From positions 1-44,381 of the forward strand of contig JAOZRE010000004.1 of NCBI GenBank assembly GCA_029940215.1: a stretch of DNA of 44,381 nt. Reading direction: 5' to 3'. The DNA comes from a bacterium (GTDB lineage: Bacteria > SAR324 > XYD2-FULL-50-16). Shown in pieces: positions 975 to 39,948 of this stretch. Below the pieces are notes generated by a model. That model did not search any database and was not told where the DNA came from. It saw only the letters and a program-made list of their open reading frames with translations. The position numbers and the translations under genes were made by a program. Each line of letters begins with the position of its first letter. Position 1 is the first letter of the stretch.

Positions 975-976
975 GA

Positions 977-11773: not shown

Positions 11774-12142
11774 CTATTCTTCTCGTGGTACGAGGCGACT
11801 GGCGATGCGGTAGAGCAACCAGCGGTTGAAGGCGTTCATATATTTAATGCTGTCCTTACCTGCGATGGCCATTCCCGCAAGGAAAACAAGGTGCGAGAGG
11901 CCGTACGCAAGCGGCGATCCAATCAGGAAAAGCGCCGGCCAGGAGAGGTAAAAGGAGACCACACCCAGAACCGTGATAAACGGCCAGGCCATCAGATAGC
12001 TGAATCCGACAATCCCCATTCCCAGAATAAACTGGACAGACGGTTTTTCCCGGAACATCGACAGATCTGCCGGTTCGGCCAGGGCCCATTTAAAAAAGCG
12101 GGTCTCGGCTATCCAGTTACGGAAACGTCGTAGCCCAATCAT
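11774..12142 (-). CDS. Small membrane protein, last gene of the lipid cluster
   Basis: Two to three hydrophobic helices. ATGA-coupled to the deacetylase. Confidence 0.75.
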   Translation of the reverse strand: MIGLRRFRNWIAETRFFKWALAEPADLSMFREKPSVQFILGMGIVGFSYLMAWPFITVLGVVSFYLSWPALFLIGSPLAYGLSHLVFLAGMAIAGKDSIKYMNAFNRWLLYRIASRLVPREE

Positions 12143-12951
12143 CTGGTAGCTCCGATTTTGTCCATCACCGGTCGATCAATCAGGGTGGAAAGTGGAACAG
12201 GTTGCAGCTGTTTTGACTGCAGCCCGACAAAAATACGCTCCATCTCTTCCATTAGTTGCCTGGATGTCATTTCCCCGTGAGGTTTGCAATCGTGGAGCAG
12301 CAGGATATCGCCGGGTCGGATTTTTTTCAGGACCTTCTCAGCCATTCCGTTGATGCGGCGATTTCCAAAATCCGTGGCTCGACAGCTGAAACCGACGCAG
12401 GTCAGCCCGAGATTTTCCAGAATCGGTCTCAGGTGAGGATTTGTGATTCCAACCGGAGGCCGGAAGGTCTTTGGTCGGATTGAAAAGTCAGCCAATCTTT
12501 CCTGGCAGGTTATAATCTCCGCCTCAATTTTCCGTCGTCCCTTCAACATCAGAAACACATCATGGGTATCAGAGTGGTTTCCAATATCGTGCCCCCCATC
12601 CAGAATTGCCCGAACCAGGTCCGGACAGGCTGCGACTTTTTCGCCGATGACGAAAAAGGTGACTTGAAACCCGAACCTTGAAAGCAGCTCAAGCAGGGCA
12701 GGCGTTGTTTCCGGGTCCGGACCATCGTCAAAGGTGATGGCGATTTCAGGACGCTGGGTCTTTCCCCGGCGCACAATGGGAAGAAAGAAGCTGAGTCGCT
12801 GGGCATAAGGTCCCACAAGGCACAGCAGTCCAAACACAACCGCAGGCAGGAACCAGAGAGACGGAACCAGAATCAGCAGTGGAACCGTTGTCAGGGCAGC
12901 CAGTGCGGCAGAGAGTTCAAAACGGCTTCGAAAGGGAAATTTGTTCAGCAT
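12139..12951 (-). CDS. Membrane-anchored polysaccharide deacetylase (NodB/CE4)
   Basis: TFDDGP, GNHS.TH, FRPP.G, LLHD motifs and an N-terminal TM segment. This family is typical of flexirubin/APE-type clusters. Confidence 0.9.
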   Translation of the reverse strand: MLNKFPFRSRFELSAALAALTTVPLLILVPSLWFLPAVVFGLLCLVGPYAQRLSFFLPIVRRGKTQRPEIAITFDDGPDPETTPALLELLSRFGFQVTFFVIGEKVAACPDLVRAILDGGHDIGNHSDTHDVFLMLKGRRKIEAEIITCQERLADFSIRPKTFRPPVGITNPHLRPILENLGLTCVGFSCRATDFGNRRINGMAEKVLKKIRPGDILLLHDCKPHGEMTSRQLMEEMERIFVGLQSKQLQPVPLSTLIDRPVMDKIGATR

Positions 12952-13325
12952 TTTCCATCGAGCTTGAATTTACCACTGAACTTCAAATAGGTACAGCTGC
13001 TATCAGCGATCTGCGCTTTAACGGTGACGCAGGAAGCGTCGGCCGATACTGTTTCAATGGACAGTTCCAGTTCAGATGTTCTGTCCGGGATCAGCAAGTT
13101 GAGGAACTTGATCTGCCGGGATTCTGTCAGCAAGACCTTCCGGCCCAGGTGATCCGCGACCAGTTCTTTTATCATCTGGATCATACAGGCGCCAGGTGTC
13201 ACCGGATTGCCCGGAAAGTGCCCGTCATAAACAGGGTGCTCCGGGATGAGGGTGATACCCAGGCGAACCACCGCTTCCGTTTGTTCCAGGACCCTGCTGA
13301 CCTTAAAGAAAGAATCTTTCAGCAT
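12945..13325 (-). CDS. FabA/FabZ-like 3-hydroxyacyl-ACP dehydratase (ApeI-like)
   Basis: HPVYDGHFPGNPVTPG hot-dog catalytic motif and IKFL. ATG at 13325. Confidence 0.88.
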   Translation of the reverse strand: MLKDSFFKVSRVLEQTEAVVRLGITLIPEHPVYDGHFPGNPVTPGACMIQMIKELVADHLGRKVLLTESRQIKFLNLLIPDRTSELELSIETVSADASCVTVKAQIADSSCTYLKFSGKFKLDGKC

Positions 13326-13341
13326 AAACAACCATTGCGAA

Positions 13342-14616
13342 TTAAACAGACTGCGCAGATTCCCGCCCGAACGTTTTTTTAACCAGGTTTCGGTTGCGCG
13401 GCCGCAGGGTTTTATTCTCCATCTCTTTTTTGACCACCCGCAGCATAAGCTTGAACATTTTCACCGACTGGGCTTCGTCCGCATAGAAGGTGTCCCAGGC
13501 ATAGGTCAACAGCTCCTGCAGTTTGTCGGGGGTCATGTGTTTGGGCTGATAAACCACCCTGTCAGCGGAATACCGGTCCCAGTCATATGAGAGAATCCGT
13601 CCCGCCTGATGCAGTTCATTATAGGCCTGCGTGTGGGGAAATGGGGTCAGCACCGTGAATTCAGCCAGATCCAGTTCAATCTCCATCAGAAAATCGATCA
13701 GCCGTTTGACATCGTCCTCAGTCTGGTCGTCCAGCCCCAGCAGGATGGTGCCTTCCACGCCAATGCCGTGATCGTGGTAGCGCTTGATCCGATCCCTTAT
13801 ATAATCAGAGGTATCAAACACCGCCTGGTACACATACCAGGCCCCCGCCTGTGCCGCCAGGTCCAGGACTTCGGGGTCGTCTTCAATGGGATGGCAGCAC
13901 CAGCTTTTTTTCAGCGGGATCATTTCCCGAAAGAGGTCTTTTTCCCACTGGGTATCCTGGGCCAGGGAGTTATCGACGATGAACAGCCGGTTGTTGTCTA
14001 TCCCGGCAATCTCTTCGATTGTTTTATCAATGGGCCGGGGCCTGAATTTTCGCCCCCCCAGATAGGCCACCGCACAGGGATAACAGTTGAAATGACACCC
14101 CCTGGAGGCATGCACCAGGTCCACCATCTGCACTCCCTTGTAGTTATACAGATCCGAATCCAGGATATCCCGCCGCGCCGACCCTACGATCTCAATGGGC
14201 GGCAGATCGGTCTGGTAGTTGTATACAGGCTTGAGGCGGTCCATTTTAAAATCCGTCATCACCTCATCCATGCGCCCTTCGGCTTCACCCAGAAAAACCG
14301 AGTCCCCATGTTCGGCTGTCTCTTCAGCATGGAGCATGGTAGCAATACCGCCAAATATCACCTTAATTCCCCGCCTGCGATACTCCACCGCAATCTCCCA
14401 GCCCCGTTTGATCTGGATCGTCAACATCATTGAGATCCCCACCATATCAACCGACTCATCAAAATCAATGGTTTGAACGTTTTCATCGACAAAGGTGACC
14501 GACACATCATCCGGCAGGGAAGCTGCAAAAACGACAGGGCCGTGTGGGGGCAGATGAAACTCTGTCTGACAATCCAGTTTTGCCCACCTGGGATAAATCA
14601 ATTTAAAATTTATCAT
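13342..14616 (-). CDS. Cobalamin-binding (class B-type) radical SAM protein
   Basis: N-terminal B12-binding domain (DENV, VGIS, VIFGGI, GEAE) followed by SRGCHFNCYPC (CxxxCxxC) and LTPFPHT. Confidence 0.9.
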   Translation of the reverse strand: MINFKLIYPRWAKLDCQTEFHLPPHGPVVFAASLPDDVSVTFVDENVQTIDFDESVDMVGISMMLTIQIKRGWEIAVEYRRRGIKVIFGGIATMLHAEETAEHGDSVFLGEAEGRMDEVMTDFKMDRLKPVYNYQTDLPPIEIVGSARRDILDSDLYNYKGVQMVDLVHASRGCHFNCYPCAVAYLGGRKFRPRPIDKTIEEIAGIDNNRLFIVDNSLAQDTQWEKDLFREMIPLKKSWCCHPIEDDPEVLDLAAQAGAWYVYQAVFDTSDYIRDRIKRYHDHGIGVEGTILLGLDDQTEDDVKRLIDFLMEIELDLAEFTVLTPFPHTQAYNELHQAGRILSYDWDRYSADRVVYQPKHMTPDKLQELLTYAWDTFYADEAQSVKMFKLMLRVVKKEMENKTLRPRNRNLVKKTFGRESAQSV

Positions 14617-14618
14617 TT

Positions 14619-16256
14619 CTATCCTTTGTTTTCATTACGCAACAAGCGTCGAAGCGGCTTCCCCACGCGATTGGCAGGAATTTCATCACAAAAGCGAATA
14701 TAGCGGGGCACCTTGTAAGCCGCCAGGTGCTCCTTGCAGAATGCCATCAATTCAGCTTTTTCACCGGTTTTTCCTTCCTCGGTCACCACGTAGGCAACGA
14801 TGGCTTCTCCCCGCATTTTGTCCGGGGTGCCAACAGCCGCAGCATCCTTGACGGAAGGATGTTTCTTGAGTACGGATTCAATATCGCTGGGATAGACATT
14901 AAAGCCGCGCGAAATGATCAGGTCGTCCTTACGATCCACGAGGTAGAAGTACCCATCTTCATCCATCCGGGCCAGGTCGCTGGTATAGAGCCAGCCGTCC
15001 CGGATCGACTCCCAGGTTCGTTCCGGGTCGTTCCAGTAACCCTGCATCACCTGAGGTCCGCTGATAATCATCTCTCCAACCTCACCAACCGGGCAGTCCG
15101 TTTCACCCGTTTCGATATCGACGATCCTGACATCAATACCGGGAAGGGGTAGTCCGATGCTGTCATATCGTGGCTTTTCCGCCTTAAACGGCATGATATG
15201 GGATGATGAAGAGCCCTCAGATAGGCCATAAGCCTGGGCAATCCGCTTTCCGGTCAATTGTTCGTACTTGACCTGCACCCATTCCGGCAGCGGCGCCCCG
15301 CCGCCTGTTGCCACCTCGATGGCTGAGAGATCGTATTGATCCGCCTCGTTGTGTGACACCAGGGCCGCCCACAAGGCCGGTACCGCAGGAAAAGAAATCG
15401 GGCGATATTTTTTGATATCACCAAGAATCGTCAGAATATTGGACCAGTCGAACATGGGATACAAAATCATCCGCATACCCTTGCGAACCGACAAGTGGAG
15501 GCCGATCGTCATCCCGAAGACATGAAAAAATGGAATCATGCAATGTACCGCCGGGTTCTCCGGGTTCACATCCGGTCGCCAGCTATCTATCTGCACCAGA
15601 TTGCTTGTGATATTGCGATGGGTCAGCACCACCGCCTTGGGGGCTCCCGTTGAGCCGCTGGTGTATTGTAGCACAGCGACATCATCCATCTCACAGACCC
15701 TTTCCGGCTCCTCAGTCGGATTGGCTGCAACCAGATCATTGAAGATCAGGATTTCCGGACATGACTCCCCAATATCGATCGTTTTTTCCAGGTTCATGAC
15801 CGAATGGATCACAATCTTGCGCAGGGGGGTCTCTTCGACTACCTGAACCACGTTATTGAGAAATATATCCAGAGTGATCACGACTTGTGCATCCGAATTA
15901 TTCAGGAATGTTACCAGGTCCGCTCCCTGGCTCATCACATTGAGGTTCACCACTATCGCTCCCAGCTTGACCACCGCATAAAACCCGATGATGTAAGTTG
16001 GCGAATTGGGCAGGAGCAGTGCCACCCGATCCCCCCTTTTGATGCCCATTACCTGCAGCGCGTACGCAAACCCGTTAACCTTTTTGTTGATCTCACCGTA
16101 GGTGATATCCAGCTCGTTCATGGTTGAGGCAATGTAATCCGGGTGTTCGGTCGCTGTTCTTACCAACAGTTCCGGCAGGGTAGCGTTCAGATACTCCGGT
16201 TCCGAAACGACACCTTCTTCATATTGGTTTAACCAGGGTTTTTTCATAGTCGTCAT
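14619..16256 (-). CDS. Long-chain fatty-acid-CoA ligase (FadD-like)
   Basis: YTSGSTGAPKA, AYGLSE, GPQVM.GYW, DRKDD, GKPLRR adenylation motifs. Confidence 0.92.
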   Translation of the reverse strand: MTTMKKPWLNQYEEGVVSEPEYLNATLPELLVRTATEHPDYIASTMNELDITYGEINKKVNGFAYALQVMGIKRGDRVALLLPNSPTYIIGFYAVVKLGAIVVNLNVMSQGADLVTFLNNSDAQVVITLDIFLNNVVQVVEETPLRKIVIHSVMNLEKTIDIGESCPEILIFNDLVAANPTEEPERVCEMDDVAVLQYTSGSTGAPKAVVLTHRNITSNLVQIDSWRPDVNPENPAVHCMIPFFHVFGMTIGLHLSVRKGMRMILYPMFDWSNILTILGDIKKYRPISFPAVPALWAALVSHNEADQYDLSAIEVATGGGAPLPEWVQVKYEQLTGKRIAQAYGLSEGSSSSHIMPFKAEKPRYDSIGLPLPGIDVRIVDIETGETDCPVGEVGEMIISGPQVMQGYWNDPERTWESIRDGWLYTSDLARMDEDGYFYLVDRKDDLIISRGFNVYPSDIESVLKKHPSVKDAAAVGTPDKMRGEAIVAYVVTEEGKTGEKAELMAFCKEHLAAYKVPRYIRFCDEIPANRVGKPLRRLLRNENKG

Positions 16257-16831
16257 ATGGGGTTATCTTTTTTAAGCAGTTCGATCATGTTCTGCCTGTG
16301 ATTGGCGATAATAAAAGCAACGGTGACAGCAACGCCGCTAGTGGAAATCGAATCCATCCCGATCTCCTTAACCACCAAAGCACCGAGGGTCAGAATCAGA
16401 AAAAATGAGGCGATAAAGGGTTTGCGAAACAGACCATACGCAGTGACCCAGGCCACCATGGCATAAATGACCGACCAGCCTGTGATCATAGCGAAGAAAC
16501 CCATATAGTTCGCGACACCTTTTCCACCTTTGAAGCCATGGAAGCAGGGAAATCGGTTACCCAGGATCAGCACCAGCCCTACCCAGGGAACCAGCCGCAT
16601 CGGCAGATAGTAAATAGCCAGCCAGGAAACACCCATCGCCCGGCTGAAGTCCAGTAGCAGCACCAGAATCGCCCAGAGCAGACCCGCCTGTCGATAGACA
16701 TTGGTCGTCCCCGGATTACCACTAAACTGCGCCCGGGGATCCGACCGCCCCATCAACCGAAACAGGATGATGGAAAAGTTGACTGATCCCGCCAGGTAAG
16801 CTGTTAGTAGTAAAGTAATGAATATTGCCAT
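16253..16831 (-). CDS. plsY: Acyl-phosphate:glycerol-3-phosphate acyltransferase (PlsY family)
   Basis: AYL.GS, SGNPGTTNV.R, FKGGKGVA, HRQN motifs; polytopic membrane protein. Confidence 0.9.
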   Translation of the reverse strand: MAIFITLLLTAYLAGSVNFSIILFRLMGRSDPRAQFSGNPGTTNVYRQAGLLWAILVLLLDFSRAMGVSWLAIYYLPMRLVPWVGLVLILGNRFPCFHGFKGGKGVANYMGFFAMITGWSVIYAMVAWVTAYGLFRKPFIASFFLILTLGALVVKEIGMDSISTSGVAVTVAFIIANHRQNMIELLKKDNPI

Positions 16832-16909
16832 TTTTTAATAATCCTTCTTGTAAAAAAGCTTTACCACGCAGGCACAGAGATAATTCTGTATAAAAGGCCA
16901 CTCTCTGTT

Positions 16910-17677
16910 TTATTTAACACAGCCAGTTTCCCTGTCGAGCAGTTCTTTGACTGTTTCCATCAGTGCTTCAACAGAAAACCCCTCGTCCTCATAGTCCGGG
17001 TTCAGGGTCTCCACCAGTTTCAGGCGGATGGGACGATCAATTGCCGTGTTAAACAAAAAAGTGCCAGGCCGGAAAAGATCGTTACTGTTTTCGACCAGCA
17101 GAACCTTAATCGTTGCCCGACTTCTCAGGGCCACCTCAAATGCTCCTCGCGCCAGCGTACCAATTTCTCCTGTCCGACTCCGGGTTCCCTCCGGAAATAC
17201 AAAGACATTTCCGCCGGTGGTCAGGTAGTCTCCCAACTGCATGATTCGATGAAGCACTTCCCAGGGCGACACCCCTTTTCCGACCGCAGGCACATAACCC
17301 GAATGTTTCATGAGCCACCCGAACACCGGCACACTGAAAAAAGTGCTTTTGACGATGGTCTTTTGTTTTTTAAACGCTGCGATCATCAATAGCGGGTCGA
17401 GATAAGAGATATGATTACAGACAAGTATCGCAGACCGGATATCCCTTACCTGCGGGTCAACCTCGATCGTAAGCGAGGGAATCAGAAAGCGGGTCAGGCC
17501 GAAAAACCCCCTGAAAAACAGGTGATGCAGGTGCTGATATCGCAACTCCCGCCCCTCCTTCCTCACGTATGCCGCCAGGTAGAAAGGAAGAAAAAACACC
17601 AGAAACCCGAAAATAAAATAGACCCAGAGAATCGTCGTCACCAGAAGATCAATGGACTTTCGGACCGGGTTTTTCAT
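16910..17677 (-). CDS. 1-acyl-sn-glycerol-3-phosphate acyltransferase (PlsC family)
   Basis: NHISYLD (HX4D) and FPEGTRS motifs. Confidence 0.9.
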   Translation of the reverse strand: MKNPVRKSIDLLVTTILWVYFIFGFLVFFLPFYLAAYVRKEGRELRYQHLHHLFFRGFFGLTRFLIPSLTIEVDPQVRDIRSAILVCNHISYLDPLLMIAAFKKQKTIVKSTFFSVPVFGWLMKHSGYVPAVGKGVSPWEVLHRIMQLGDYLTTGGNVFVFPEGTRSRTGEIGTLARGAFEVALRSRATIKVLLVENSNDLFRPGTFLFNTAIDRPIRLKLVETLNPDYEDEGFSVEALMETVKELLDRETGCVK

Positions 17678-17730
17678 ATCAGGTATATTTTTATTTTATT
17701 TAACTTGTAATAATTCAGCATGCGTTTCGA

Positions 17731-17823
17731 CGAGGGGATCATGATTCAAAACACGCATAAATCCATCCCTGGAGCTGCGCGAAAACGTCCTGTTTTCGAG
17801 CATTTTGAATCATGATCCCCTCG
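17731..17823. repeat. Perfect 21 bp inverted repeat with an inner hairpin (REP/MITE-like)
   Basis: CGAGGGGATCATGATTCAAAA (17731-17751) / TTTTGAATCATGATCCCCTCG (17803-17823); inner CGAAAAC/GTTTTCG. Confidence 0.8.
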
Positions 17824-17863
17824 ACTCCGGAAATATCGTAAACCGCTACTTCAATTGTTCAAT

Positions 17864-18751
17864 TTAATCCAACCGTTTTCCCAGGAACGGTTCAAAATGG
17901 AACCATTCCAGCGGGTATTGCCGGGCAGCATCTGCCAAGAGGTCAGCGTAAGCCTGTGCCGACTGACTGACTGCTTTTTTTCGCTCCGCCCTGCTGCCAG
18001 CCTTGACGGTTATAGGTGGACAGATATGGACATGAAATTGTCGGTTGCCGGTTCTGACCGGAAACAGGACAAACAACGGTTTCTCTGAAATCAGGGCCAG
18101 CAGATGTGGTGATTCCGGTAGCTCAATTTCATGCCCTAGAAACTCGACCTTAATCGACCGCTGCGACTCATGCCAGATCCGGTCCCCAGTCAGGGACACC
18201 AGCCCCCCATTGTTTAAGAAGGTGTTTGCCTCTATTAATTGGAACGGAGATGCATTGTTTTGATCAACCGCTACAATTTTGATCCCCTCATCCGCCAGAC
18301 CCTGCTTCTGAAGTTTTTCCAGCTGTTCCCCGTTTCTGATACCCATGTACAGCAAGAGCCGGACATCCGCTCTCCTTCTTTTCAGCAGATGGGCTGCCGC
18401 TTCCCAGTTTCCGAGATGAGACTGCAGCAGAATTGCTCCTTCATTTCGATCCAGCACCTGCTCCAACGCTTCCCAGCCTTCGGTTGTTACTTCTATGCGA
18501 TCCGGATCTGACAGCTGCATGCGATCAACGTGAATCCGGGTAAATCGCTGATACTGAAGCCAGGCGCTGATAGTTGCCGACAACCTGCCCTTTTTTGGGA
18601 ACAGTGCCCGGTAAAAGCGGATAGACTCCTGAAGCCTTCCCGGCATAAATATGAAAAATCCGGCCGCCACCAACCGGGAAAAAAGACTGAAAAACCAGCT
18701 GCCACCCCATGTTGCCAGCCGCACCATCAGGCGATAAAGAACCGATATCAT
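17864..18751 (-). CDS. LpxL/HtrB-like (lipid A type) acyltransferase
   Basis: SHLGNWE (HX4E), V.L.GDR, V.FLG, YPLEWFHF motifs. Confidence 0.88.
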   Translation of the reverse strand: MISVLYRLMVRLATWGGSWFFSLFSRLVAAGFFIFMPGRLQESIRFYRALFPKKGRLSATISAWLQYQRFTRIHVDRMQLSDPDRIEVTTEGWEALEQVLDRNEGAILLQSHLGNWEAAAHLLKRRRADVRLLLYMGIRNGEQLEKLQKQGLADEGIKIVAVDQNNASPFQLIEANTFLNNGGLVSLTGDRIWHESQRSIKVEFLGHEIELPESPHLLALISEKPLFVLFPVRTGNRQFHVHICPPITVKAGSRAERKKAVSQSAQAYADLLADAARQYPLEWFHFEPFLGKRLD

Positions 18752-22594: not shown

Positions 22595-22632
22595 CGATCA
22601 TCCATCATGTAGGTTGGAGCCGCTGTTGCGGA

Positions 22633-24348
22633 TCAGAGTTCCGGAATAAACGCCATTGCCCATGTTCCCGGTCCCATGTGCGCGCCAGACGTCAACGAGA
22701 CGGGCTGCAGGATGATTTCAGCCAGGGGATACCGCCTGATAACCTCTTTTCTGGCAACCGTTTCCACCCACTCCCTGTTATCGGAGTACTCCATCATGAT
22801 CAGCGGTTTTGCATCAGTTTTGACGGAGGCTGCCAGCTTCTCGAAGGCAAATTCAAGCTGCCCTTTCGGGTTGCGGGCAGTTCCAACCTTGTGAGCCCCC
22901 TGGGGTAAAGGACTGATGACAGGCTTGATCCGGAGGGTATCGCCAAAAAAAGCGCTGGTCTTGGAAAGGCGGCCACCCGCCGCCAGGTATTGCAGTTTGT
23001 CCAGAAATACGTATTCCTGACAATTGTCCACAGCCTTCCGGGCATATTTAATCACAGCTTCGGGGTCATCTGTCTGTTCGGCAAAGCGAACAGTTGCCAT
23101 AACGATCAGCGCCAATCGACCGGAAGCCGCACCCGTGTCAACTACGGAAAAACGGTTTTCCTCATCATTGTCACTTTTCCAGCGAGCTGCCAGGTCATAA
23201 TTTCCGGTAAAAGCAGAGCCGACAGACAGATAAAGCACCCGGTCATGCTGGTCCAGCACCCGCTGGTAGTATTGGTGCCGTTCAAAATCGGACGCCTGTG
23301 AGGTTGACACCTTTTCCCCCGAGCGCATCATCCGGTAGAGCTCTTCCGGCTCAAACAGGGTCTCCGGCAGGGAGCGGTTGCGAGTAACGATGTAGCTGTT
23401 CAACAGCGTAAAGCCCATGATACGGGCATTTTCACGAGTCAGAGATCCTGCCGCATCGGTCATGATATGAATGGACTGTTTTTGCGACTGGGTCTTCCGA
23501 TGTTCAACCTGCTCATCAATATCATCGTCGGACCACTGCACAATCTTTCCGATGGTGGACATGCGCGCCCGGAATTCCTCTTTGTCACTGGTATGCAGGT
23601 GGACCTTCAGATAGCCGTCGTGCGGGATGACTACAGCCTGCTCCCCCATGTCATGAATGAAGTCCAGATTGTCATCGCGATTCGGATCCAGCTGAACAAC
23701 GGTATCAACACAGAAACCGTTTTCTATGGATTCCTGGAAGTCTGCTGATATCTCCAGCAACCCTTTAAAGCGCTCTGTAATGGGAATAAAATCGTTCACC
23801 TGGTTGATCAGGCCTTTAAAGAAACTCTCGAGAAATACAAACATTCCCAACGCCCCTGAATCCACTACACCCGCTTGAGCCAGCACTGGAAGCTGTGTGG
23901 GGGTTAACCTCACAACCTGGGCCAGTTGTTCCAGCATCTCCTGGATGTATCCTTCCCGGTTTTCATAGGATGCCTGTTCCAGGTGTGAGACCAGGCAGTC
24001 AAAAACGGTCAGCATGGTTCCCGGCATGGGGTCATGTACCGCGTCCCTGGCCTTATCCCTACCGATACGGGCGGCAGCTGCCAGACCAGCGGGTGTTTCT
24101 GCCGTCAACAGACCGGAGAAAAAGCGAGTGGCAATGTTCCCTGAATTACCCCGGGCAGCCATCATCAGTTGATAGACGGTATCCTCTTTACTGTCTTGAA
24201 GATAACGCAGGGGTGTCAGGCTCGCCAGCAGGTTGCGCCCGGTATCGCCATCGGCGACTGGAAATACGTTGATATCATCCAGCAGATCAGACCAGGCCAC
24301 TACTCTTTCCAATCCCAGTACAAATGCATGTTGCAGAACAGGTTCCAT
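22633..24348 (-). CDS. DAK2-DegV fusion (FakA-FakB fatty acid kinase-like)
   Basis: INVFPVADGDTG, ARGNSG, GTMLTV, VDSGA, KVHLHT (FakA) followed by IMTD, STSQ, LDKLQYL.AGGR, H.GPG (DegV). Confidence 0.88.
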   Translation of the reverse strand: MEPVLQHAFVLGLERVVAWSDLLDDINVFPVADGDTGRNLLASLTPLRYLQDSKEDTVYQLMMAARGNSGNIATRFFSGLLTAETPAGLAAAARIGRDKARDAVHDPMPGTMLTVFDCLVSHLEQASYENREGYIQEMLEQLAQVVRLTPTQLPVLAQAGVVDSGALGMFVFLESFFKGLINQVNDFIPITERFKGLLEISADFQESIENGFCVDTVVQLDPNRDDNLDFIHDMGEQAVVIPHDGYLKVHLHTSDKEEFRARMSTIGKIVQWSDDDIDEQVEHRKTQSQKQSIHIMTDAAGSLTRENARIMGFTLLNSYIVTRNRSLPETLFEPEELYRMMRSGEKVSTSQASDFERHQYYQRVLDQHDRVLYLSVGSAFTGNYDLAARWKSDNDEENRFSVVDTGAASGRLALIVMATVRFAEQTDDPEAVIKYARKAVDNCQEYVFLDKLQYLAAGGRLSKTSAFFGDTLRIKPVISPLPQGAHKVGTARNPKGQLEFAFEKLAASVKTDAKPLIMMEYSDNREWVETVARKEVIRRYPLAEIILQPVSLTSGAHMGPGTWAMAFIPEL

Positions 24349-24501
24349 AGCTTCTCAATCAGAACATGAAAAAATCCGCATCCGGTGGACACGGTTATTG
24401 TCTTCCAATGATATAATTTAACTGAAAAAAGCGGTCCCCCGCAAGAAATAAACCGCAAGAAACAGGATACACTTCAAGAAATAGTGCTGATTGCACAGCG
24501 A

Positions 24502-25149
24502 CTATTGAATTAACTGCATGTCAAGTGAGTATCCGAATGTGCCCTCAGCCGTCAATTTGATTCTCTCTGGAACGGCTCCACGTTCTGAATCAGAGCCAGA
24601 TCGAGCGATCACCCTGCGCTGCAGGCGGTTTGCAGAGTCATATCGTGCCAGTTCCCAGTCACCTCCCCGGCCAATTTTGACATCCACAACCCCACTGATG
24701 TCATCCTGGTAACGGCAAACCACATCAAAGCCGCGAGCAATGCCTACTTCTGTCGGTACCGTGGCCGGTTTCAGAAAGATCAGCCGCACATCGTTCATCA
24801 GACCTTCGGCAAAAGCCCCCGAAGAGAACAGGGAAATCCCCCGTTGAATCTCAACTTTATCCCCTTTTGCCCGGCCTTCGAACAAAACCAATCCTTCAAT
24901 CGTCATGATAACCACATGCAGGGACCGCTCTTCCGGGTCAATGGTTGTGACCCCGGTGATCAGAGTCTTTTTCCCATCGGGCAGTGTGGCTGCGATGGCG
25001 TGGACAAACTGCCTTTTTTCAGTCACCCAGGGCCGTTGGCACTTTGCGGGTTCAATGTCCACCATAGGCAACAGCTCAAGTGACGGCAGTGACGCACAGC
25101 CCGCCAGGAAAAACAGGGTAAAAATGGCGATGGATAACACCGACTTCAT
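24502..25149 (-). CDS. Lipoprotein (DUF3261/LolB-like accessory protein of APE-type clusters)
   Basis: Lipobox LAGC, position next to the LolA-like gene, G..LF and D.RLIF similarity. Confidence 0.65.
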   Translation of the reverse strand: MKSVLSIAIFTLFFLAGCASLPSLELLPMVDIEPAKCQRPWVTEKRQFVHAIAATLPDGKKTLITGVTTIDPEERSLHVVIMTIEGLVLFEGRAKGDKVEIQRGISLFSSGAFAEGLMNDVRLIFLKPATVPTEVGIARGFDVVCRYQDDISGVVDVKIGRGGDWELARYDSANRLQRRVIARSGSDSERGAVPERIKLTAEGTFGYSLDMQLIQ

Positions 25150-25787
25150 AAACTCTCTTTAAAAACGGAATCAGAAATGGGCTGATTGATTTCCAGCCCC
25201 TTAAAATCAATTTTCGTGTAGTTCTCCCCATCCTCGAAAATCGTAATGCTCTCGATAACACCTGGCTGGCTGGACAGTTGCAGTTCAATGCGCTCGATCA
25301 TACCGGACATGTCCGTCGAAGGGGTCAGTAGGATGCGGTTTTTCTCCAGGGTTGTTTTGAAATCGGAATTGTCATCAAAACGGCCCCCCAGCCAGCGGGT
25401 GATATTCTGCATCACCACCTGCATCGCCTGCAGGTTTGCTCCTGAATCCTGGACCGCTTTACCGTCCCTTTTGAAAAAACGTTTCACCTCTCCCTGATAC
25501 ATTGTCAGCACGCTGTTGACCGGCGACTGATATTCCCAGCGAATGGCGGCCGGCCTCCTGAAGAAAAAACGGCCTGTTGAGATCAGGGGTCGCAACAAAA
25601 TTTTCATCTGTTTTTTCTGAACAAATGTCGCCTGCAGAGATTGAATCTGTGTGGCCTGTTCCCGAAATTGAGCAAGTCTGGCATCCTCTCCGTGCACCCC
25701 TCGAACGTCAACAGCCAGCAGGAATAGCAACAGACACATCATGCCGACACCAGGCCTCTTGAAACCGAATTCATGGCGGGGTATCAT
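25146..25787 (-). CDS. LolA-like periplasmic lipid/lipoprotein carrier
   Basis: Signal peptide; SLQATFVQ.K, S.G.F.F.RP..IRWEY, D.T.I.F-like and N..I.DS.F motifs. Confidence 0.85.
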   Translation of the reverse strand: MIPRHEFGFKRPGVGMMCLLLFLLAVDVRGVHGEDARLAQFREQATQIQSLQATFVQKKQMKILLRPLISTGRFFFRRPAAIRWEYQSPVNSVLTMYQGEVKRFFKRDGKAVQDSGANLQAMQVVMQNITRWLGGRFDDNSDFKTTLEKNRILLTPSTDMSGMIERIELQLSSQPGVIESITIFEDGENYTKIDFKGLEINQPISDSVFKESL

Positions 25788-26044
25788 GCTTTCTCCGCTG
25801 CAGCCCGAATATGGTCGGCAATGGTTTGAATCGAATACAGAACCGCCTTGCCCTGATCCGGGTCCACAACCTGAAGGCCGTACTCCTTATCCAGCAGAAC
25901 TACCAATGATAATGCGTCAATGGAATCCAGTCCCAATCCGTCACCGAACAGGGAGGCATCGGTATCGATCTCATCTGGTTTGATGTCTTCCAGGTACAAC
26001 TCTTCGATGATCTGTCTTTTCAGTTTCAGTGTCAGTTCTTCCAT
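25784..26044 (-). CDS. Acyl carrier protein (APE/flexirubin-type ACP). Start refined to 26044.
   Basis: LFGDGLGLDSIDAL phosphopantetheine site; acidic 86 aa protein starting at MEELT. Confidence 0.9.
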   Translation of the reverse strand: MEELTLKLKRQIIEELYLEDIKPDEIDTDASLFGDGLGLDSIDALSLVVLLDKEYGLQVVDPDQGKAVLYSIQTIADHIRAAAEKA

Positions 26045-26155
26045 AAAGGCTCGATTAGTCATTAAGAAACAGCAAAGTAGCTGGTCAGCAACATGGCTGC
26101 TGTGTGTTAAAAAACCCGGAGTTTGCAGTGGCACCCAGGACAGGGATAATCCTGG

Positions 26156-26584
26156 TTAATCAATGACGCCCCATTTTCTCTTCCATTCCATAAAGGACTG
26201 CGGGGAGGAGAGAATCAGTTCCCCACGGCGGTCAAGAAATACCTGCATGGTATTGCCGGTTGTCAGCAGTTCGTCTGTGTCCTGCCGGTAGATGCGATAT
26301 TCATACTGGATTTTAGCCGCTTCTGAATCTTTGAAAATCGTCTCGATATAAGCTGGTTCATTGTAGCGCAACGGTTTTTTATAGCTGAGGTCCATTTTTA
26401 CCACCGGGGTGGAGAGCCCTTCGTTCATGGCATCAAGGTAGTTAAAATCGTATTTTTTGGCAAACGCTTCCCGGCCATCCTCGAAATACCTGACATAGTG
26501 GCCATGCCAGACAACGCCCATCATATCCACCTCACTGAAGCGGACACGAATATCCGCCCTCGCCGTCAAAATCGCACCGCTCAC
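26156..26584 (-). CDS. Acyl-CoA/ACP thioesterase (YbgC/4HBT family)
   Basis: VRFSEVD.MGVVWHG.Y..YFE.GR motif. Confidence 0.9.
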   Translation of the reverse strand: MSGAILTARADIRVRFSEVDMMGVVWHGHYVRYFEDGREAFAKKYDFNYLDAMNEGLSTPVVKMDLSYKKPLRYNEPAYIETIFKDSEAAKIQYEYRIYRQDTDELLTTGNTMQVFLDRRGELILSSPQSFMEWKRKWGVID

Positions 26585-27060
26585 GTTAATTCCTCCTCCT
26601 GGTCAGGGCTGTATACCCTGATTTCACATTCTGCTATCTGCTGGTTATCGGAAAACACCTTACCGAAAAAAATCCGGAAATTGAGTGCCTGGTACTGAAA
26701 CCGGACCTCTGTTCGAATGTCAGATCCGCAATCCGGAAGTCGCTCGATTTTCAGGTTTTTGATCATGGTTATAAATCCCGTCAGCAGCTCTTTCCCTTTC
26801 TGGCGCCTACTGAAACCTGACCCCGCTCCAATGGTCTGAGCCATGTTCTCAACCAGACCCGCCTCACTCAGCTGGCCGTCGTCTGAAAAAACACTCACCT
26901 CCGGAACAGAATACCGGGTTTCGGAAAAATGGTCACTGACGGATACAAGCTTGTCAATCATCACCATCGGCGGCTTTTGCGCAATCAGCTGCACCAGTTC
27001 CTCTCCTGAAACCGATACGGATTGAACAGCTGTCTCCTGGCTGGTGAGGTCGGTTTTCAT
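26581..27060 (-). CDS. Hot-dog fold dehydratase partner (ApeP-like). Start probably 27060.
   Basis: LI.Q.PPMVMID.L, GL.ENMAQT, G.I..IK motifs. Confidence 0.8.
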   Translation of the reverse strand: MKTDLTSQETAVQSVSVSGEELVQLIAQKPPMVMIDKLVSVSDHFSETRYSVPEVSVFSDDGQLSEAGLVENMAQTIGAGSGFSRRQKGKELLTGFITMIKNLKIERLPDCGSDIRTEVRFQYQALNFRIFFGKVFSDNQQIAECEIRVYSPDQEEELT

Positions 27061-27226
27061 GATTAAATATGCATTCTGAATGGGATAGGTGCCATCTCCG
27101 GCCGTTCTTTTCAATGTCCCTGCAACAAGCCGGAGCAATGGACGGTATCCGGTAACCGGGTTAGTCGGTACAGTCTATCAATTCGGTAAAGGAGCTAACT
27201 GGGCGGGCAACCAGGCCGATCATAAA

Positions 27227-27472
27227 TCAGCTGGCAGTTCTGTTATGAACATAGTCATAGAAATCGTTGAGTGTATCAATATCGGACATCTCCTCCGTGA
27301 CAACCTTGAATCCAAAGTGCTTCTCAATCAATACCACAATATCAACCAGATCGAGGCTGTCAATCTCCAACGTTTCCAGCATATTCTCGTCCGGCATGAT
27401 CTGCTCCGGCTCGATTTCAAATTCATCTATCAATATTTCGCTAATTTTTGCGACTACCTGTTCTCTTTGCAT
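27227..27472 (-). CDS. Acyl carrier protein
   Basis: LEIDSLDLVD Ppant motif; 81 aa acidic protein. Confidence 0.92.
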   Translation of the reverse strand: MQREQVVAKISEILIDEFEIEPEQIMPDENMLETLEIDSLDLVDIVVLIEKHFGFKVVTEEMSDIDTLNDFYDYVHNRTAS

Positions 27473-27521
27473 GAAGCTTTAACGTTTATCTTAGGATTTG
27501 TTGCAACTGTTCACCATCTGC

Positions 27522-28745
27522 CTATTCACTGAACCGGCACAAAGCCAGTGACGCATTGGTTCCCCCGAAACCGAAGGAGTTGGATATAACAACATTCAGC
27601 TTCTGCTCCAGGGTTTTGCTGGTGAGATTAAGGTTTTCCGCCTCTTTTCCTGGCGTCTCAAGATTGATGTTGGGAGCGATAAAGTCGTTTTCCATCATGA
27701 TCAGCGAGTAAACAGCCTCGCTAGCTCCTGCCATCCAACACTCGTGACCAGTCATGGATTTTGTTGAACTGACAACAGGCTTTACATCGCCAAACACCCG
27801 GTCAATGGACTCCGCCTCCTTCATATCCCCCACAGGGGTCGAGGTGGCGTGGGCGTTGATATAGTCAACCGCCTTCAGGTCAAGACCCGAGTTCTTCATA
27901 CACAATTCCAGAGCCCTGGCAGGACCCTCAGCATTCGGTACCGAAATGTGGTCGCCGTTAGAGGAAAACCCGTACCCAATAACCTCGCCCAGGATTTTCG
28001 CGTCCCGCTTCTTCGCTGATTCCAAGCTTTCCAGGATCAATGTTGCCCCACCACCACTTGGAATCAGTCCATCCCTGCCGGCATCGAAGGGTCGCGAAGC
28101 CTCCTGTGGTGTGGATTCCCTGGTTGAAAAGGCACTCAACCCGTCAAAACTGGCCATGGCCTCCGCATTGATTTCCTGTGCACCGCCACAGATGATCTGC
28201 TCCTGCATGCCTGACTGAATCAGCAGGTAGGCCATGCCAATTGAGTGAGATCCGCTGGCACAGGCGCCGCTGATGGTGAAACTGACCCCCTTAAGCTTGA
28301 AGATCGTCGCCAGATTCATGGTCACTGTGGAATTCATCGACCGAAAAATCGATGCTGATCCCAGCAACATGGTATCCTGCTTTTCGCGCATCAGATCAGC
28401 AGATTCAATAATCGCTTTAGCGGAACTGTCGTTGCCGTATAAAATACCGACCTCCCCGTCGGCCAGAAAATCCCTGTCCATCCCGGCACCTTCCAGTGCC
28501 TCAACGGTAGCCAGGTATGCGTACTCTCCTTCCTCTGCCAACCGGGCTCTATCCCTGCGATGCAAGATCCCTTTCAGCTGCGGGCGCTCCAGGTTGCCGG
28601 TCAGACCGGAGCGAAATCCCATTTTTTTGCGCACCTCGTCCATGATGATCCCGGATTTCCCTTGGAAAAGGGCGTCCCGGACCTGATCAACGTTCGTCCC
28701 CAGGCATGAATAGATACCGATTCCGGTAATAACAACTCGTTTCAT
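27522..28745 (-). CDS. Beta-ketoacyl-ACP synthase (FabB/FabF family). Start refined to 28745.
   Basis: MKRVVITG.G; catalytic GACASG, NAHATST, TGHECWMAG; SNSFGFGGTN. Confidence 0.93.
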   Translation of the reverse strand: MKRVVITGIGIYSCLGTNVDQVRDALFQGKSGIIMDEVRKKMGFRSGLTGNLERPQLKGILHRRDRARLAEEGEYAYLATVEALEGAGMDRDFLADGEVGILYGNDSSAKAIIESADLMREKQDTMLLGSASIFRSMNSTVTMNLATIFKLKGVSFTISGACASGSHSIGMAYLLIQSGMQEQIICGGAQEINAEAMASFDGLSAFSTRESTPQEASRPFDAGRDGLIPSGGGATLILESLESAKKRDAKILGEVIGYGFSSNGDHISVPNAEGPARALELCMKNSGLDLKAVDYINAHATSTPVGDMKEAESIDRVFGDVKPVVSSTKSMTGHECWMAGASEAVYSLIMMENDFIAPNINLETPGKEAENLNLTSKTLEQKLNVVISNSFGFGGTNASLALCRFSE

Positions 28746-28809
28746 AATGTATTTCGCCTGTCCAAGGGGTCGAACCTGTTTTTTCTGAAAAATTCGTTTC
28801 CTGGAAACA

Positions 28810-29538
28810 TCAAGTGTACAGCCCACCATTTACCGAGATGACCTCGCCCGTAACATAAGAGGCTCCCTCAGAAGCCAGAAAACCAACCACTTCCGCTACC
28901 TCTTCTGGATCTCCAAAACGCTTCAGGGGAATAAGCGCTTTAAAATCCTTTTCAGGCAGGTTTTCCGTCATGGCCGTTTTGATAAGGCCTGGTGCCACCG
29001 CGTTTACAGTAACCTTCCGCTTGCCAACCTCCTGAGCCAGCGCCTTGGTCGCGCCGATGATTCCCGCCTTTGCGGCTGAGTAGTTTACCTGCCCCGGATG
29101 CCCCTTTTGTCCCGACAGCGAGACAATATTGATAATCCGCCCATATTTGTTAGCCAGCATCTCCTTCAGAACCCGCCGGGTCACATAAAAAAAGGCGTTC
29201 AGATTGACATTCATCACGTCGTTCCAGTCCTCATTTTTCATCCAGATCAGCAGCTGGTCGCGATTCAGTCCGGCATTGTTAACCAGAATCTGAATGGAAT
29301 GCTCACTGTGTTCCTCTATCCAGCCACCCAGAACAGTCTCAATGGATTCGGGGTTACCAACATCAAACCGGATCAGTTCACCAGTTCCTTTCTGTCGCTT
29401 GATCTCATCCAGTGTATCGGTGGCGGCCCCGGAATCAGAGTTGTAGTTGATCAGCACGTGAAACCCCATGGCGGCCAATTTAATACTGGTAGCCCTGCCG
29501 ATCCCCTTTGACCCACCTGTTATCAGCGCACAATTCAT
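28810..29538 (-). CDS. fabG: 3-oxoacyl-ACP reductase. Start refined to 29538.
   Basis: TGGSKGIG, NNAG, NYSAAKAG, VAPG.I.T.M, VNGG; adjacent to KS and ACP. Confidence 0.92.
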   Translation of the reverse strand: MNCALITGGSKGIGRATSIKLAAMGFHVLINYNSDSGAATDTLDEIKRQKGTGELIRFDVGNPESIETVLGGWIEEHSEHSIQILVNNAGLNRDQLLIWMKNEDWNDVMNVNLNAFFYVTRRVLKEMLANKYGRIINIVSLSGQKGHPGQVNYSAAKAGIIGATKALAQEVGKRKVTVNAVAPGLIKTAMTENLPEKDFKALIPLKRFGDPEEVAEVVGFLASEGASYVTGEVISVNGGLYT

Positions 29539-39934: not shown

Positions 39935-39948
39935 AGACGGCTCCGGGG

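Follow-up and report, generated by a model that had tools for sequence, protein, structure and literature searches.

What lipid is made by a gene cluster that joins the scaffold of aryl polyene (APE) synthesis to a fatty acid kinase and an acyl-phosphate acyltransferase? This question is raised by a run of 19 genes in a bacterium of the SAR324 lineage (XYD2-FULL-50-16). The run lies within positions 1 to 44,381 of contig JAOZRE010000004.1 (GenBank assembly GCA_029940215.1), and this whole 44,381-nucleotide stretch is called the window below. With slightly better than even confidence, we read the run as a reduced, anaerobe-type, APE-like lipid operon that has its own acyl-phosphate entry into glycerolipid synthesis.

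A first-pass annotation, made from the letters of the window alone, had described an APE/flexirubin-like cluster that was apparently rewired into a glycerolipid pathway. New in the present analysis are the direct mapping of the genes onto Ape proteins, the reduced state of the operon in its genus (g1), an asparagine signature at position 92 of PlsY (Asn92), the co-occurrence of the kinase and PlsY in genomes without PlsX, and the deletion of the ancestral plsY.

A conserved operon of 19 genes

All 19 open reading frames (ORFs) lie on the minus strand between positions 11774 and 29649 of the window, and the ORF list, Pfam, and NCBIfam agree with the co-orientation and the families assigned earlier. 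The previous end of the run, 29538, is the likely start (Met38 of the ORF) of the 3-ketoacyl-acyl carrier protein reductase (KR). Eleven gene junctions, by ORF coordinates, are overlaps or gaps of at most 21 bp. The genes plsY and fadD overlap by 4 bp, and the deacetylase gene overlaps its two neighbors by 7 and 4 bp. The widest gaps are found before the kinase gene (153 bp) and before the plsC-like gene (186 bp).

In a second species of genus g1 (G001), the operon is colinear in 19 of 19 genes with 51–85% protein identity, and the flanks are also common to both. Because of this colinearity, the run is, judged from the sequences, a conserved operon and not a chance series of ORFs. A sigma-70-like promoter match (TTGACG-17-TATATT, 29621..29649, minus strand) is situated approximately 80 bp upstream of the KR start and fits 10 of 12 consensus positions, but is weak evidence, as the scanned region contains 23 such sites versus 15.8 ± 3.2 expected. 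A search for RNA sequencing runs covering positions 14619–24348 listed none. The source assembly comprises 5.04 Mb in 612 contigs and is rated 89% complete.

Mapping of the operon onto the aryl polyene cluster

APE-type clusters are described in passages of two studies (10.1101/2020.12.19.423268, PMC8253772) as the most widely distributed among the families of biosynthetic gene clusters in bacteria, for which assembly of the lipid anchor is proposed only. The APE product is a glycerol-phosphate-N-acetylgalactosamine (GalNAc) lipid with the aryl polyene esterified to the sugar (10.1101/2020.12.19.423268). This aryl polyene lipid (APEL) carries a conjugated 26:5-3-OH acyl group at sn-2 plus a saturated acyl chain, and the same study assigns ApeD and ApeJ to anchor steps and ApeM, ApeL, and ApeN to export. 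In a passage of PMC8253772, Escherichia coli apeD, apeJ, and apeR deletion mutants are grouped as late, attachment-stage mutants. Since ape is already known to yield a glycerol-phosphate-GalNAc lipid, glycerolipid synthesis is inherent in APE clusters, and the description of the present cluster as rewired into a glycerolipid pathway was overstated.

Families were called with Pfam and NCBIfam profiles, and Ape matches were obtained by BLAST against ApeA–R from the ape region of E. coli CFT073, the characterized cluster used for comparison. Twelve of the 19 proteins have an Ape counterpart at E ≤ 0.002, to which a weak C-terminal match between the FadD-type ligase and ApeH can be added. Like ape of E. 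coli CFT073 and Xenorhabdus doucetiae, the operon has counterparts of ApeQ, R, E, F, I, P, K, D, J, M, and L. Unlike ape, it has neither the ApeO/ApeC pair of ketosynthase (KS) and chain length factor (CLF) nor an ApeH-type aryl ligase; ApeA, B, C, G, H, N (by sequence), and O are without a counterpart among the 19 genes. Its additions over ape are the kinase, the Asn92 PlsY, the FadD-type ligase, a B12-binding radical S-adenosylmethionine (SAM) enzyme, a NodB-type deacetylase, and a methyltransferase fused to the exporter. No Ape counterpart was found by BLAST for the kinase, PlsY, the radical SAM enzyme, the deacetylase, the lipoprotein, the 122-aa protein, or the methyltransferase tail. The APE/flexirubin-type scaffold that had been recognized earlier is thus borne out, both by these matches and by the KR, which exceeds the FlxB cut-off.

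For chain elongation, the KR (28810..29538) is ApeQ/FlxB-like, with 375.9 bits against NF053542 (FlxB; cut-off 340) and 48% identity to ApeQ. The elongating KS (27522..28829; PF00109 and PF02801) is 34% identical to ApeR over the full length, matches ApeO more weakly, and retains Cys190, His327, and His362. Its true start may be Met29, as the family match begins at residue 29. The first acyl carrier protein (ACP1, 27227..27472; PF00550) is 37% identical to ApeF and has a DSL motif.

Two hotdog-fold proteins are putative dehydratase components. The ApeP-like partner (185 aa, 26581..27138) is 36% identical to ApeP over 70 aa (E 5.7e-10) and has only weak FabZ matches, and no HFP-type histidine motif was seen when its sequence was read for motifs. 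The FabA/FabZ-like dehydratase (128 aa, 12945..13331) matches PF07977 with 29 bits, is 27% identical to ApeI (E 2.5e-8), and contains the motif HFPGNPVTPG. The names ApeP-like and ApeI-like, already in use in the first-pass annotation, agree with these weak BLAST matches and lack support from family models.

The thioesterase (26156..26584) belongs to the YbgC/FadM type of the 4HBT family (PF13279, 58.4 bits; TIGR00051, 79.6 bits, cut-off 68.7) and is 33% identical to ApeK. The second carrier protein (ACP2, 25784..26134) reaches 71.5 bits against NF006617 (cut-off 70) and is 45% identical to ApeE; the serine motifs DSL/DSI are present in the two ACPs. The acyl-AMP ligase (14619..16256) is of the FadD type (PF00501, 294.7 bits; PF13193; PRK05605, 454.9 bits; PRK06187, 431.4 bits), and its match to ApeH is weak and confined to the C terminus (E 8e-7). 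A possible role is that of acyl-ACP synthetase for ACP2.

ApeJ is represented here by two genes. Its N-terminal half corresponds to a family 2 glycosyltransferase (GT2, 21848..22594; PF00535, 81.8 bits; DAD at 92–94), which is 33% identical to ApeJ residues 10–230 (E 1e-30). This is a putative transferase of the lipid-phosphate:N-acetylhexosamine (HexNAc) type, whose best NCBIfam match, below the cut-off, is PpgS (polyprenyl-phospho-GalNAc synthase, E 3.8e-21). The C-terminal half corresponds to an LpxL-family acyltransferase (Lip_A_acyltrans, 17864..18751; PF03279, 59.8 bits; HLGNWE motif) with 26% identity to ApeJ 264–548 (E 3.8e-17). This protein had been counted among the glycerolipid additions as LpxL-like, but it is an ordinary Ape part.

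The lysophospholipid acyltransferase (16910..17677; PF01553, 73.7 bits) was previously labeled PlsC and is ApeD-like (26% identity, E 4.3e-15). It carries HISYLD at 89 and FPEGTR at 151, which correspond to the HX4D and FPEGT motifs of the PlsC/lysophospholipid acyltransferase family, and stays under the TIGR00530 cut-off (62.7 bits versus 102.95). Of the acyl-phosphate route to phosphatidic acid that had been proposed from Fak, PlsY, and PlsC, the kinase and PlsY would still form such a route by their families, whereas the third member is an ApeD homologue.

Export is represented by three proteins. The MMPL/HAE3 exporter of the RND type (1037 aa, 18748..21861; PF03176, TIGR00921) is ApeM-like (27% identity, E 9e-11) and ends in a class I SAM methyltransferase with its domains at residues 854–1006. 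The fusion is kept in G001, in the sister genus g6, and in a further locus (L012), and the sequence relatives of the tail in PDB are generic only. The periplasmic LolA-like carrier (25146..25787; PF03548, 64.7 bits) has a signal-like N-terminal segment and a weak match to ApeL (E 0.002). The LolB-like lipoprotein (215 aa, 24502..25149) has an LAGC lipobox, which is kept in its orthologues, and matched neither a Pfam or NCBIfam family nor, by BLAST, ApeN. Its AlphaFold2 model, built from 18 orthologues, has a pLDDT of 88.4, and the top Foldseek matches are the LolA/LolB proteins 3buu, 8cm1, 1iwm, and 9tpm (E 7.5e-6 to 3e-4). Fold and lipobox, rather than sequence, suggest that this protein stands in for ApeN as a functional analogue, and the two features also uphold the earlier label of lipoprotein.

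A membrane-anchored polysaccharide (HexNAc) deacetylase of the NodB type (12139..12951; PF01522, 97.4 bits) has hydrophobic N-terminal segments and is 63% identical to its counterpart in G001; it was not found in the fetched stretches of g6. The last gene encodes a small membrane protein (122 aa, 11774..12142), an earlier label with which the hydrophobic segments, read by eye, agree. It has no Pfam or NCBIfam match, is 71% identical in G001, and was not found in the fetched g6 stretches.

Genes for dialkylresorcinol synthesis (DarA/DarB-type) are a defining feature of flexirubin clusters. In the Pfam and NCBIfam searches, no ketoacyl-ACP synthase III-type or other DarA/DarB-like family was found among the 19 proteins. 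Of the flexirubin features, the cut-off for the FlxB-type reductase is reached (375.9 versus 340 bits), and that of the LolA2_flexi model is missed by the LolA-like carrier (100.8 versus 125 bits).

Apparent loss of the chromophore genes

A fuller version of the cluster exists in the sister genus g6. The kinase was found in 7 of 41 relatives and in 7 of 88 genomes of the phylum, and these carriers are the source genome, one other genome of genus g1, and all five genomes of g6. The frame from the KS to the FabA-like gene is shared by g6, where eight extra genes are inserted between those for ACP1 and the LolA-like carrier: a second LpxL-type acyltransferase, a second B12-radical SAM enzyme, two KS, a 227-aa protein of unknown function, a CLF-like protein, a PaaK-type ligase, and a SPASM radical SAM protein, which brings the radical SAM genes in the frame to three. 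The BLAST counterparts of the two KS and of the CLF-like protein are ApeO and ApeC, respectively.

When these extra genes were searched by tblastn against the whole source assembly (89% complete), paralogues with 23–30% identity but no orthologue were found, and the CLF-like, SPASM, and 227-aa genes gave no match. Genus g1 therefore retains the ApeR/ApeF/ApeD, ApeE/ApeJ, and export parts without the chromophore-building part. The operon is a reduced, "anchor-only" relative of the aryl polyene clusters, in which the lipid-anchor and export half has been kept. A standard aryl pigment is an unlikely product because the KS/CLF genes, the PaaK-type ligase, and two radical SAM genes of g6 are missing from g1.

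That the operon still directs an aryl polyene or flexirubin-type pigment, with the missing genes unassembled or replaced by housekeeping enzymes, has a small probability in our estimate. The FlxB-type score of the KR, the incompleteness of the genome, and the full gene set in the sister genus speak for it. In two species of g1, however, the same reduced, colinear operon leaves no space for extra genes, the tblastn matches in the assembly are distant paralogues or nothing, and the ligase is of the FadD type rather than the ApeH or PaaK type. With the two KS, the CLF, and the PaaK-type ligase not found in the genome, a non-pigment (glyco)lipid that is exported to the outer membrane, as had been suggested in the first-pass annotation, continues to be the best reading.

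The eight missing genes would also fit a decaying remnant that makes nothing since the chromophore genes were lost. We regard this as very improbable: none of the 19 ORFs is broken, and they are closely packed and in the same order in two species (51–85% identity, with 85% for the radical SAM enzyme); the KS, the radical SAM enzyme, the acyltransferases, GT2, and PlsY have also preserved their catalytic motifs.

A predicted single-chain fatty acid kinase

The kinase (571 aa, 22633..24348) combines a FakA N-terminal (Dak2) domain, a FakA middle domain, and a DegV domain of the FakB type in one chain (PF02734, 58.3 bits; PF21645, 31.2 bits; PF02645, 149.1 bits; TIGR00762, 154.4 bits, cut-off 99.7). 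The YloV model covers residues 6–307, and the DegV domain fills 293–568. The protein aligns with structures of the FakA N domain (7rm7, 8vip, 7w7h), and its DegV domain aligns over the full length with a fatty-acid-binding DegV structure (1pzx). It contains the sole DegV domain of the source genome. Stretches of the forms TSQ-S, GGR-SK, and H-GPG are conserved across 12 homologues.

Homologues are numerous: 6149 of 8000 scored candidates reach E ≤ 1e-10. The best 120 of these 6149 have the same three domains in 559–587 residues, and the 18 of the 120 that are named are called "DegV family protein," "hypothetical protein," or "uncharacterized protein." The named proteins come from metagenome-assembled genomes of Deltaproteobacteria, Desulfobacterales, or Thermodesulfobacteriota.

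Like the FakA/FakB system of Firmicutes (S. aureus, S. suis), the protein has Dak2, FakA middle, and DegV domains, and the predicted product, acyl-phosphate, is a substrate of PlsY. Unlike that system, it is one polypeptide, a true DegV occupies the position of FakA_C, and the gene belongs to a diderm and lies within a biosynthetic cluster beside a thioesterase gene rather than in a salvage context. The "fusion" of PMC10848957 refers to FakA's own three domains. In open-access papers and preprints, no description of a fused FakA-FakB kinase or of PlsY in aryl-polyene-type clusters was found, and only Firmicute Fak papers surfaced.

The neighborhood of the kinase gene was examined in metagenomes. 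A scan with an alignment of 12 kinase sequences yielded 544 relatives, of which the best 80 were used for neighborhood counts, and a contig scan with the single protein as query yielded 2 loci. A thioesterase gene ends at most 300 bp upstream of the kinase gene in 42 of the 58 loci with enough upstream DNA, and a GT2 gene starts at most 400 bp downstream in 32 of 56. Sixteen loci have at least 8 kb on either side of the kinase; among these long loci, matches were counted for the LpxL-like protein (14), thioesterase (13), B12-radical SAM enzyme (13), GT2 (12), KS (10), LolA-like protein (8), LolB-like protein (8), ACP2 (8), MMPL-methyltransferase (7), KR (7), FadD-like ligase (6), 122-aa protein (3), and deacetylase (2). 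An ACP2-like gene adjoins the FadD-like gene in 4 of the 14 metagenome loci that hold a FadD-like match.

A radical SAM gene on the same strand, at most 2.3 kb upstream of the kinase gene, was found in 20 of the 37 loci with at least 3.2 kb of upstream DNA. An arrangement in which this gene directly abuts the thioesterase-kinase pair was considered and rejected, as it ends within 1 kb of the kinase gene in only 4 of 45 loci. In many loci (such as L102, L103, L111, and L121), a gene of approximately 1.5 kb is located between the radical SAM gene and this pair. The conserved core of these clusters is composed of the thioesterase, kinase, GT2, exporter, and acyltransferase genes with a radical SAM gene nearby, and a PlsY gene in the cluster is the exception.

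The kinase, FadD-type ligase, and PlsY could together serve the salvage of exogenous fatty acids as in Gram-positive bacteria, with no special lipid involved. The Fak literature describes FakA/FakB in the use of exogenous fatty acids, and the operon does contain a FadD-type ligase. The position of the kinase between the thioesterase (42/58) and the GT2, exporter, and acyltransferase genes (GT2, 32/56), the nearby radical SAM gene (20/37), and the lack of an uptake gene among the 19 in the family search make this explanation improbable.

A PlsY subfamily with asparagine at position 92

PlsY (acyl-phosphate:glycerol-3-phosphate acyltransferase, 16253..16831) scores 114.8 bits against PF02660 (cut-off 24.1), is the only PF02660 match in the source genome, and remains below the cut-off of TIGR00023 (97.4 versus 137.2 bits). 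In 7 of 7 carriers of the phylum, the cluster copy is the single PlsY match (114.5–124.6 bits) and lies on the contig of the kinase; in the 6 carriers whose clusters were compared, it is in register. The best scores of the 28 other relatives with a PlsY match range from 138.9 to 177.9 bits, and one of them (G023) has a second match of 110.1 bits.

The motifs of the cluster PlsY are FSGNPGTTNVYR, GNRFPCFH, GGKGVAN, and NHRQN. According to the alignment, the residues of the glycerol-3-phosphate (G3P) clamp (Ser35, Arg45, Lys104, Asn180) and Asn37, Thr41, and His177 are kept in the cluster PlsYs. The histidine at position 92 is replaced by asparagine in 8 of 8 cluster-associated PlsYs and in 17 further copies. 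In the cluster proteins, DxxKG is also changed to DxxRA, and a conserved PCFH follows Asn92. Passages on Aquifex PlsY (PMC5700162) describe His92 as one of two side chains that contact acyl-phosphate, in the "phosphate hole," and give a conservation among homologues of 97.8% for His and 0.5% for Asn at this position. Thus, the protein resembles canonical (Aquifex) PlsY in its PF02660 fold family, motif 1, the GGKGVA loop, and H177/N180, and it differs in Asn92, DxxRA, PCFH, and a score under the TIGR00023 cut-off.

Phylogenetic analysis of 29 PlsYs places the eight Asn-type copies together in a single clade (support 100/100), and very long branches part this clade from the canonical PlsYs of the same phylum. 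These branches argue against a recent origin from the resident plsY. Transfer of the ancestral gene into the cluster was accordingly rejected.

Deletion of the canonical plsY

The order mnmA-plsY-hydrolase, in which the last gene encodes a 287-aa alpha/beta hydrolase, is found in 6 of 6 relatives of the family without the cluster (G004, G005, G006, G010, G011, G012). In the carriers examined (6 of 6), mnmA directly adjoins the hydrolase gene, with 45–100 bp between aligned ends and no plsY. The carriers read at this locus were the source genome (C1: 5081–7003), G001, G007, G014, G016, and G018; the seventh, G017, was left out. Because the two flanking genes adjoin on the same DNA in all six, the absence of the canonical plsY is a deletion and not an assembly gap.

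Other acylation genes are present elsewhere in the genome, as a check for housekeeping copies of short PlsB-like acyltransferases, plsX, and fabF (a fragment) revealed. The two short PlsB-like proteins (C155, 3410–5158, 631 aa; C600, 32717–34444, 629 aa) score 342–375 bits, under the cut-offs of 610 and 618.5, and approximately the first 190 residues of the E. coli-type model are missing from them. Proteins of this kind (at least 340 bits) were found in G033, G039, and 8 of 8 genomes of g1 and g6; 0 of 11 other genomes of the family had one. Within the family, only g1 and g6, its two large-genome genera and the ones with the cluster, have such proteins. A single plsX copy (C511) lies beside the fabF fragment at a contig end. 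The gene plsX is kept in 3 of 3 genomes of g1, 4 of 5 of g6, and 38 of 41 relatives overall. There are 13 further PF01553 matches outside the cluster in the source genome.

Co-occurrence of the kinase and PlsY

A genome recorded as Smithella (G089, locus L013) has a kinase cluster and a single Asn-type PlsY, which is encoded on another contig beside uvrC. The order to which G089 belongs was sampled with 151 genomes. The kinase was found in 63 and PlsY in 66 of them: 60 have both, 3 the kinase only (G116, G220, G232), 6 PlsY only (G138, G140, G150, G207, G211, G223), and 82 neither. The two genes share a contig, 1–35 kb apart, in at least 17 genomes. Among the 67 PlsY matches over the cut-off, 65 score 86.9–132.5 bits, the exceptions being G203 (183.6) and G150 (176.7); G135 has a fragment below the cut-off (20.4 bits).

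Twenty PlsY stretches were read and 19 yielded PlsY, the first copy of G150, with an in-frame stop, not being recovered. The combination of Asn92 and PCFH (or a near variant) was read in 13 of 13 proteins from genomes with the kinase and in 4 of 4 low-scoring PlsYs from genomes without it, and His is found in G203 and in the second copy of G150. In G203, a divergent kinase homologue (L142; C118: 694–3101; 223 bits) adjoins the canonical His92 PlsY, a pairing that differs from the Asn92 type.

PlsX (PF02504) was found in 0 of the 151 genomes, an absence that depends on the first-pass filter of the search. With the PlsX protein of the source genome as query, it was found in 0 of 5 genomes, which include contigs of 4.0–4.6 Mb. 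No PlsY match exists in 85 of the 151. The general route to lysophosphatidic acid in this order is apparently PlsB-like, and both G088 and G089 carry PlsB-like proteins. The PlsY of G088 is canonical, and the contig with the kinase gene of this genome stops just past the ApeD-like gene. Within the limits that the 151 genomes are kin, that their counts are not independent events, and that completeness was not reported, the Asn92 PlsY goes with the kinase in this order, and the kinase is its only recognizable source of acyl-phosphate.

A tentative proposal, to which we lend clearly less credence than to the lipid operon as such, is that the thioesterase, kinase, and Asn92 PlsY constitute a self-contained, PlsX-independent route that leads from acyl chains on ACP to lysophosphatidic acid. 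This route would be dedicated to a specialized outer-membrane lipid of anaerobic diderms; in this lineage, it would have displaced the ancestral plsY and may serve core membrane biogenesis. A competing explanation is that the kinase, PlsY, and PlsC-like genes are housekeeping phospholipid genes and that PlsY mainly uses acyl-phosphate made by PlsX. Its G3P-binding residues are intact, it is the only PlsY in the source genome and in 7 of 7 carriers of the phylum, and in this lineage the canonical plsY was deleted while plsX was kept. This housekeeping explanation is unlikely, however, in view of several observations. The cluster PlsY forms a separate clade that is not derived from the canonical PlsY of the phylum, and its gene is situated inside the operon, in 4-bp overlap with fadD. 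In the order of G089, the subfamily tracks the kinase, with PlsX in 0 of 151 genomes and no PlsY in 85 of 151, and is not a general route. Moreover, 8 of 8 genomes of g1 and g6 have short PlsB-like acyltransferases, which 11 other genomes of the family lack. Pls and fak genes that are the sole housekeeping copies and are not conserved along with the cluster would have counted against the first-pass annotation; plsY is indeed the sole copy, yet it accompanies the cluster in 7 of 7 carriers and is a member of a distinct subfamily. Any acyl-phosphate from PlsX that is still in use in the cell is probably also a substrate of the cluster PlsY.

The B12-radical SAM enzyme and ladderane-type clusters

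The B12-binding radical SAM enzyme (13342..14616) matches PF02310 and PF04055, each just under the cut-off, and has the motif CHFNCYPC at 174–181. It is the most conserved protein of the cluster, with 69–85% identity in related loci (85% in the second species). Proteins of Desulforhopalus, Desulfogranum, Desulfobulbaceae, and other sulfate reducers are 75–79% identical to it, including homologues in Desulforhopalus sp. 52FAK and Desulfogranum japonicum with 76–77% identity. Sequence matches in PDB are weak or generic (AprD4, 23.9 bits).

Clusters of type II fatty acid synthase (FASII) and radical SAM genes were reported by Rattray in 2009 (PMC2649909), passages of which describe synteny between Kuenenia and Desulfotalea and a candidate role in ladderane or polyunsaturated-lipid synthesis with the product left unassigned. 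Polyunsaturated hydrocarbons were reported in Desulfotalea and ladderanes were not found there, and the ladderane-type cluster has four SAM radical enzymes and phytoene-desaturase-like genes (passages of PMC2649909). In the passages of that paper that were searched, DegV, PlsY, and glycerol-3-phosphate are not mentioned. According to passages of a 2026 review (PMC13459092), the pathway of the ladderane-type cluster is still without experimental support, and only for ladderanes and the Jaw5 product has it so far been proposed that radical SAM enzymes modify fatty-acyl lipids.

Like the anammox and Desulfotalea clusters, as far as these passages describe them, the present operon combines a FASII-like set with a B12-radical SAM enzyme, a SAM methyltransferase, and a polysaccharide-deacetylase-like gene. 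Unlike them, it has one radical SAM gene, whose product scores 38.5 bits against TIGR04072 (cut-off 360), and no phytoene-desaturase-like gene. A radical-SAM-cyclized, ladderane-like chain or polyunsaturated hydrocarbons, as proposed for the Kuenenia and Desulfotalea clusters, would agree with the conservation of the B12-radical SAM gene, the highest in the cluster, with the cluster synteny and the hydrocarbons of Desulfotalea, and with the deacetylase-like and SAM methyltransferase genes of Kuenenia (passages of PMC2649909). We rate such a product as hardly probable, given the low TIGR04072 score, the single radical SAM gene in place of four, the missing phytoene-desaturase-like gene, the lack of ladderanes in Desulfotalea as reported in PMC2649909, and the status of the pathway in the parts of the review cited above.

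Proposed pathway

The favored reading, an APE-like lipid operon with its own acyl-phosphate entry, leads to a scheme in which the chemistry, substrates, and order of steps are predicted from gene content, homologies, motifs, conservation, and co-occurrence. The KS, the KR, and the ApeI- and ApeP-like dehydratases, with no enoyl reductase in the set, would elongate the chain and leave an unsaturated and/or hydroxylated acyl group on ACP1. Candidates for modification of this chain are the B12-radical SAM enzyme and the exporter's methyltransferase tail. For sn-1, the ApeK-like thioesterase would release a free acid, the kinase would convert it to acyl-phosphate, and the Asn92 PlsY would use the latter to form 1-acyl-G3P. 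The ApeD-like acyltransferase would then place the ACP1-built chain at sn-2, akin to the conjugated acyl group of APELs.

The head group may be added by the GT2, which resembles PpgS and the N-terminal domain of ApeJ and would put HexNAc on the lipid phosphate, as in the glycerol-phosphate-GalNAc lipid. A sugar-1-phosphate link to phosphatidic acid, as in APELs, fits because PpgS is the best family match of the GT2. The NodB-type deacetylase would strip the acetyl group, and the acyltransferase resembling the C-terminal half of ApeJ could add a further chain in place of the aryl polyene. Deacetylation followed by acylation would parallel the logic of NodB/NodA or LpxC/LpxD. The FadD-type ligase may load ACP2 as acyl donor for this step, roles that ApeH and ApeE play for the aryl polyene. 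Finally, the MMPL exporter, the LolA-like carrier, and the LolB-like lipoprotein would deliver the product to the outer membrane.

Several points weigh against this reading. ApeK showed no hydrolysis of APE-ACP in vitro, as stated in a passage of the discussion of PMC8253772, and by analogy the thioesterase may proofread instead of releasing a product. The Aquifex H92N mutant has 6.9% activity in a passage of PMC5700162, and the Asn92 PlsY could be slow or use another donor. PlsY lies within the cluster in 3 of 80 metagenome loci and 1 of 16 long loci, outside the conserved core, and the ApeD-like gene is present in just 5 of the 16 long loci. Conservation of the deacetylase and of the 122-aa membrane protein does not extend to g6. 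Retention of plsX fits a housekeeping role of the cluster PlsY as well as a dedicated one, and the kinship of the 151 genomes limits what their co-occurrence counts can carry. Furthermore, the source genome is 89% complete, and chromophore genes could reside in unassembled DNA. The chemistry of the pathway is conjectural for every substrate.

Surroundings of the operon

The operon is flanked by unrelated genes. On one side are genes for a polyamine aminopropyltransferase, rlmN, aroQ, and cysS, and on the other a Phd/PIN pair, a 5'-nucleotidase gene, a FabK-like gene, and a short-chain dehydrogenase/reductase (SDR) gene. The Phd/PIN pair (10487–11100, minus strand), located just downstream of the cluster, is a toxin-antitoxin pair with a Phd-family antitoxin (10870–11100) and a PIN-domain toxin (10487–10888). 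A 91-aa ORF at 11177–11452 has no family and is 77% identical in G001. The FabK-like protein of the NMO family (6946–8061, plus strand) scores 156.7 bits, below the FabK cut-off of 453, and could have an enoyl reductase role. Its gene and that of the SDR (5670–6518, minus strand) lie 4–6 kb beyond the cluster end, with unrelated genes between.

Further away, a 734-aa protein with a caspase (Peptidase_C14) domain is encoded at 35976–38180 (plus strand) and adjoins genes for a LytTR response regulator and a CHASE2 histidine kinase (39185–41724). Genes for 2-oxoacid:ferredoxin oxidoreductase (POR gamma; a thiamine pyrophosphate/ferredoxin subunit) and an FrhB/FdhB-like protein at 1–3954 (minus strand) fit an anaerobic lifestyle.

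Significance for the organism and the cluster family

The operon suggests a testable route for the first acylation of the anchor, from thioesterase to kinase to PlsY, and it brings to light a PlsY subfamily that is defined by a change at a residue in contact with acyl-phosphate. In this lineage, a cluster-borne lipid enzyme has replaced the ancestral housekeeping copy. Without chromophore genes, the operon amounts to a naturally occurring "anchor-only" version, which could ease the study of anchor chemistry and of the role of the B12-radical SAM enzyme. If the PlsX-independent, dedicated route proves true, a cluster of the natural-product type would carry the only PlsY of the cell.

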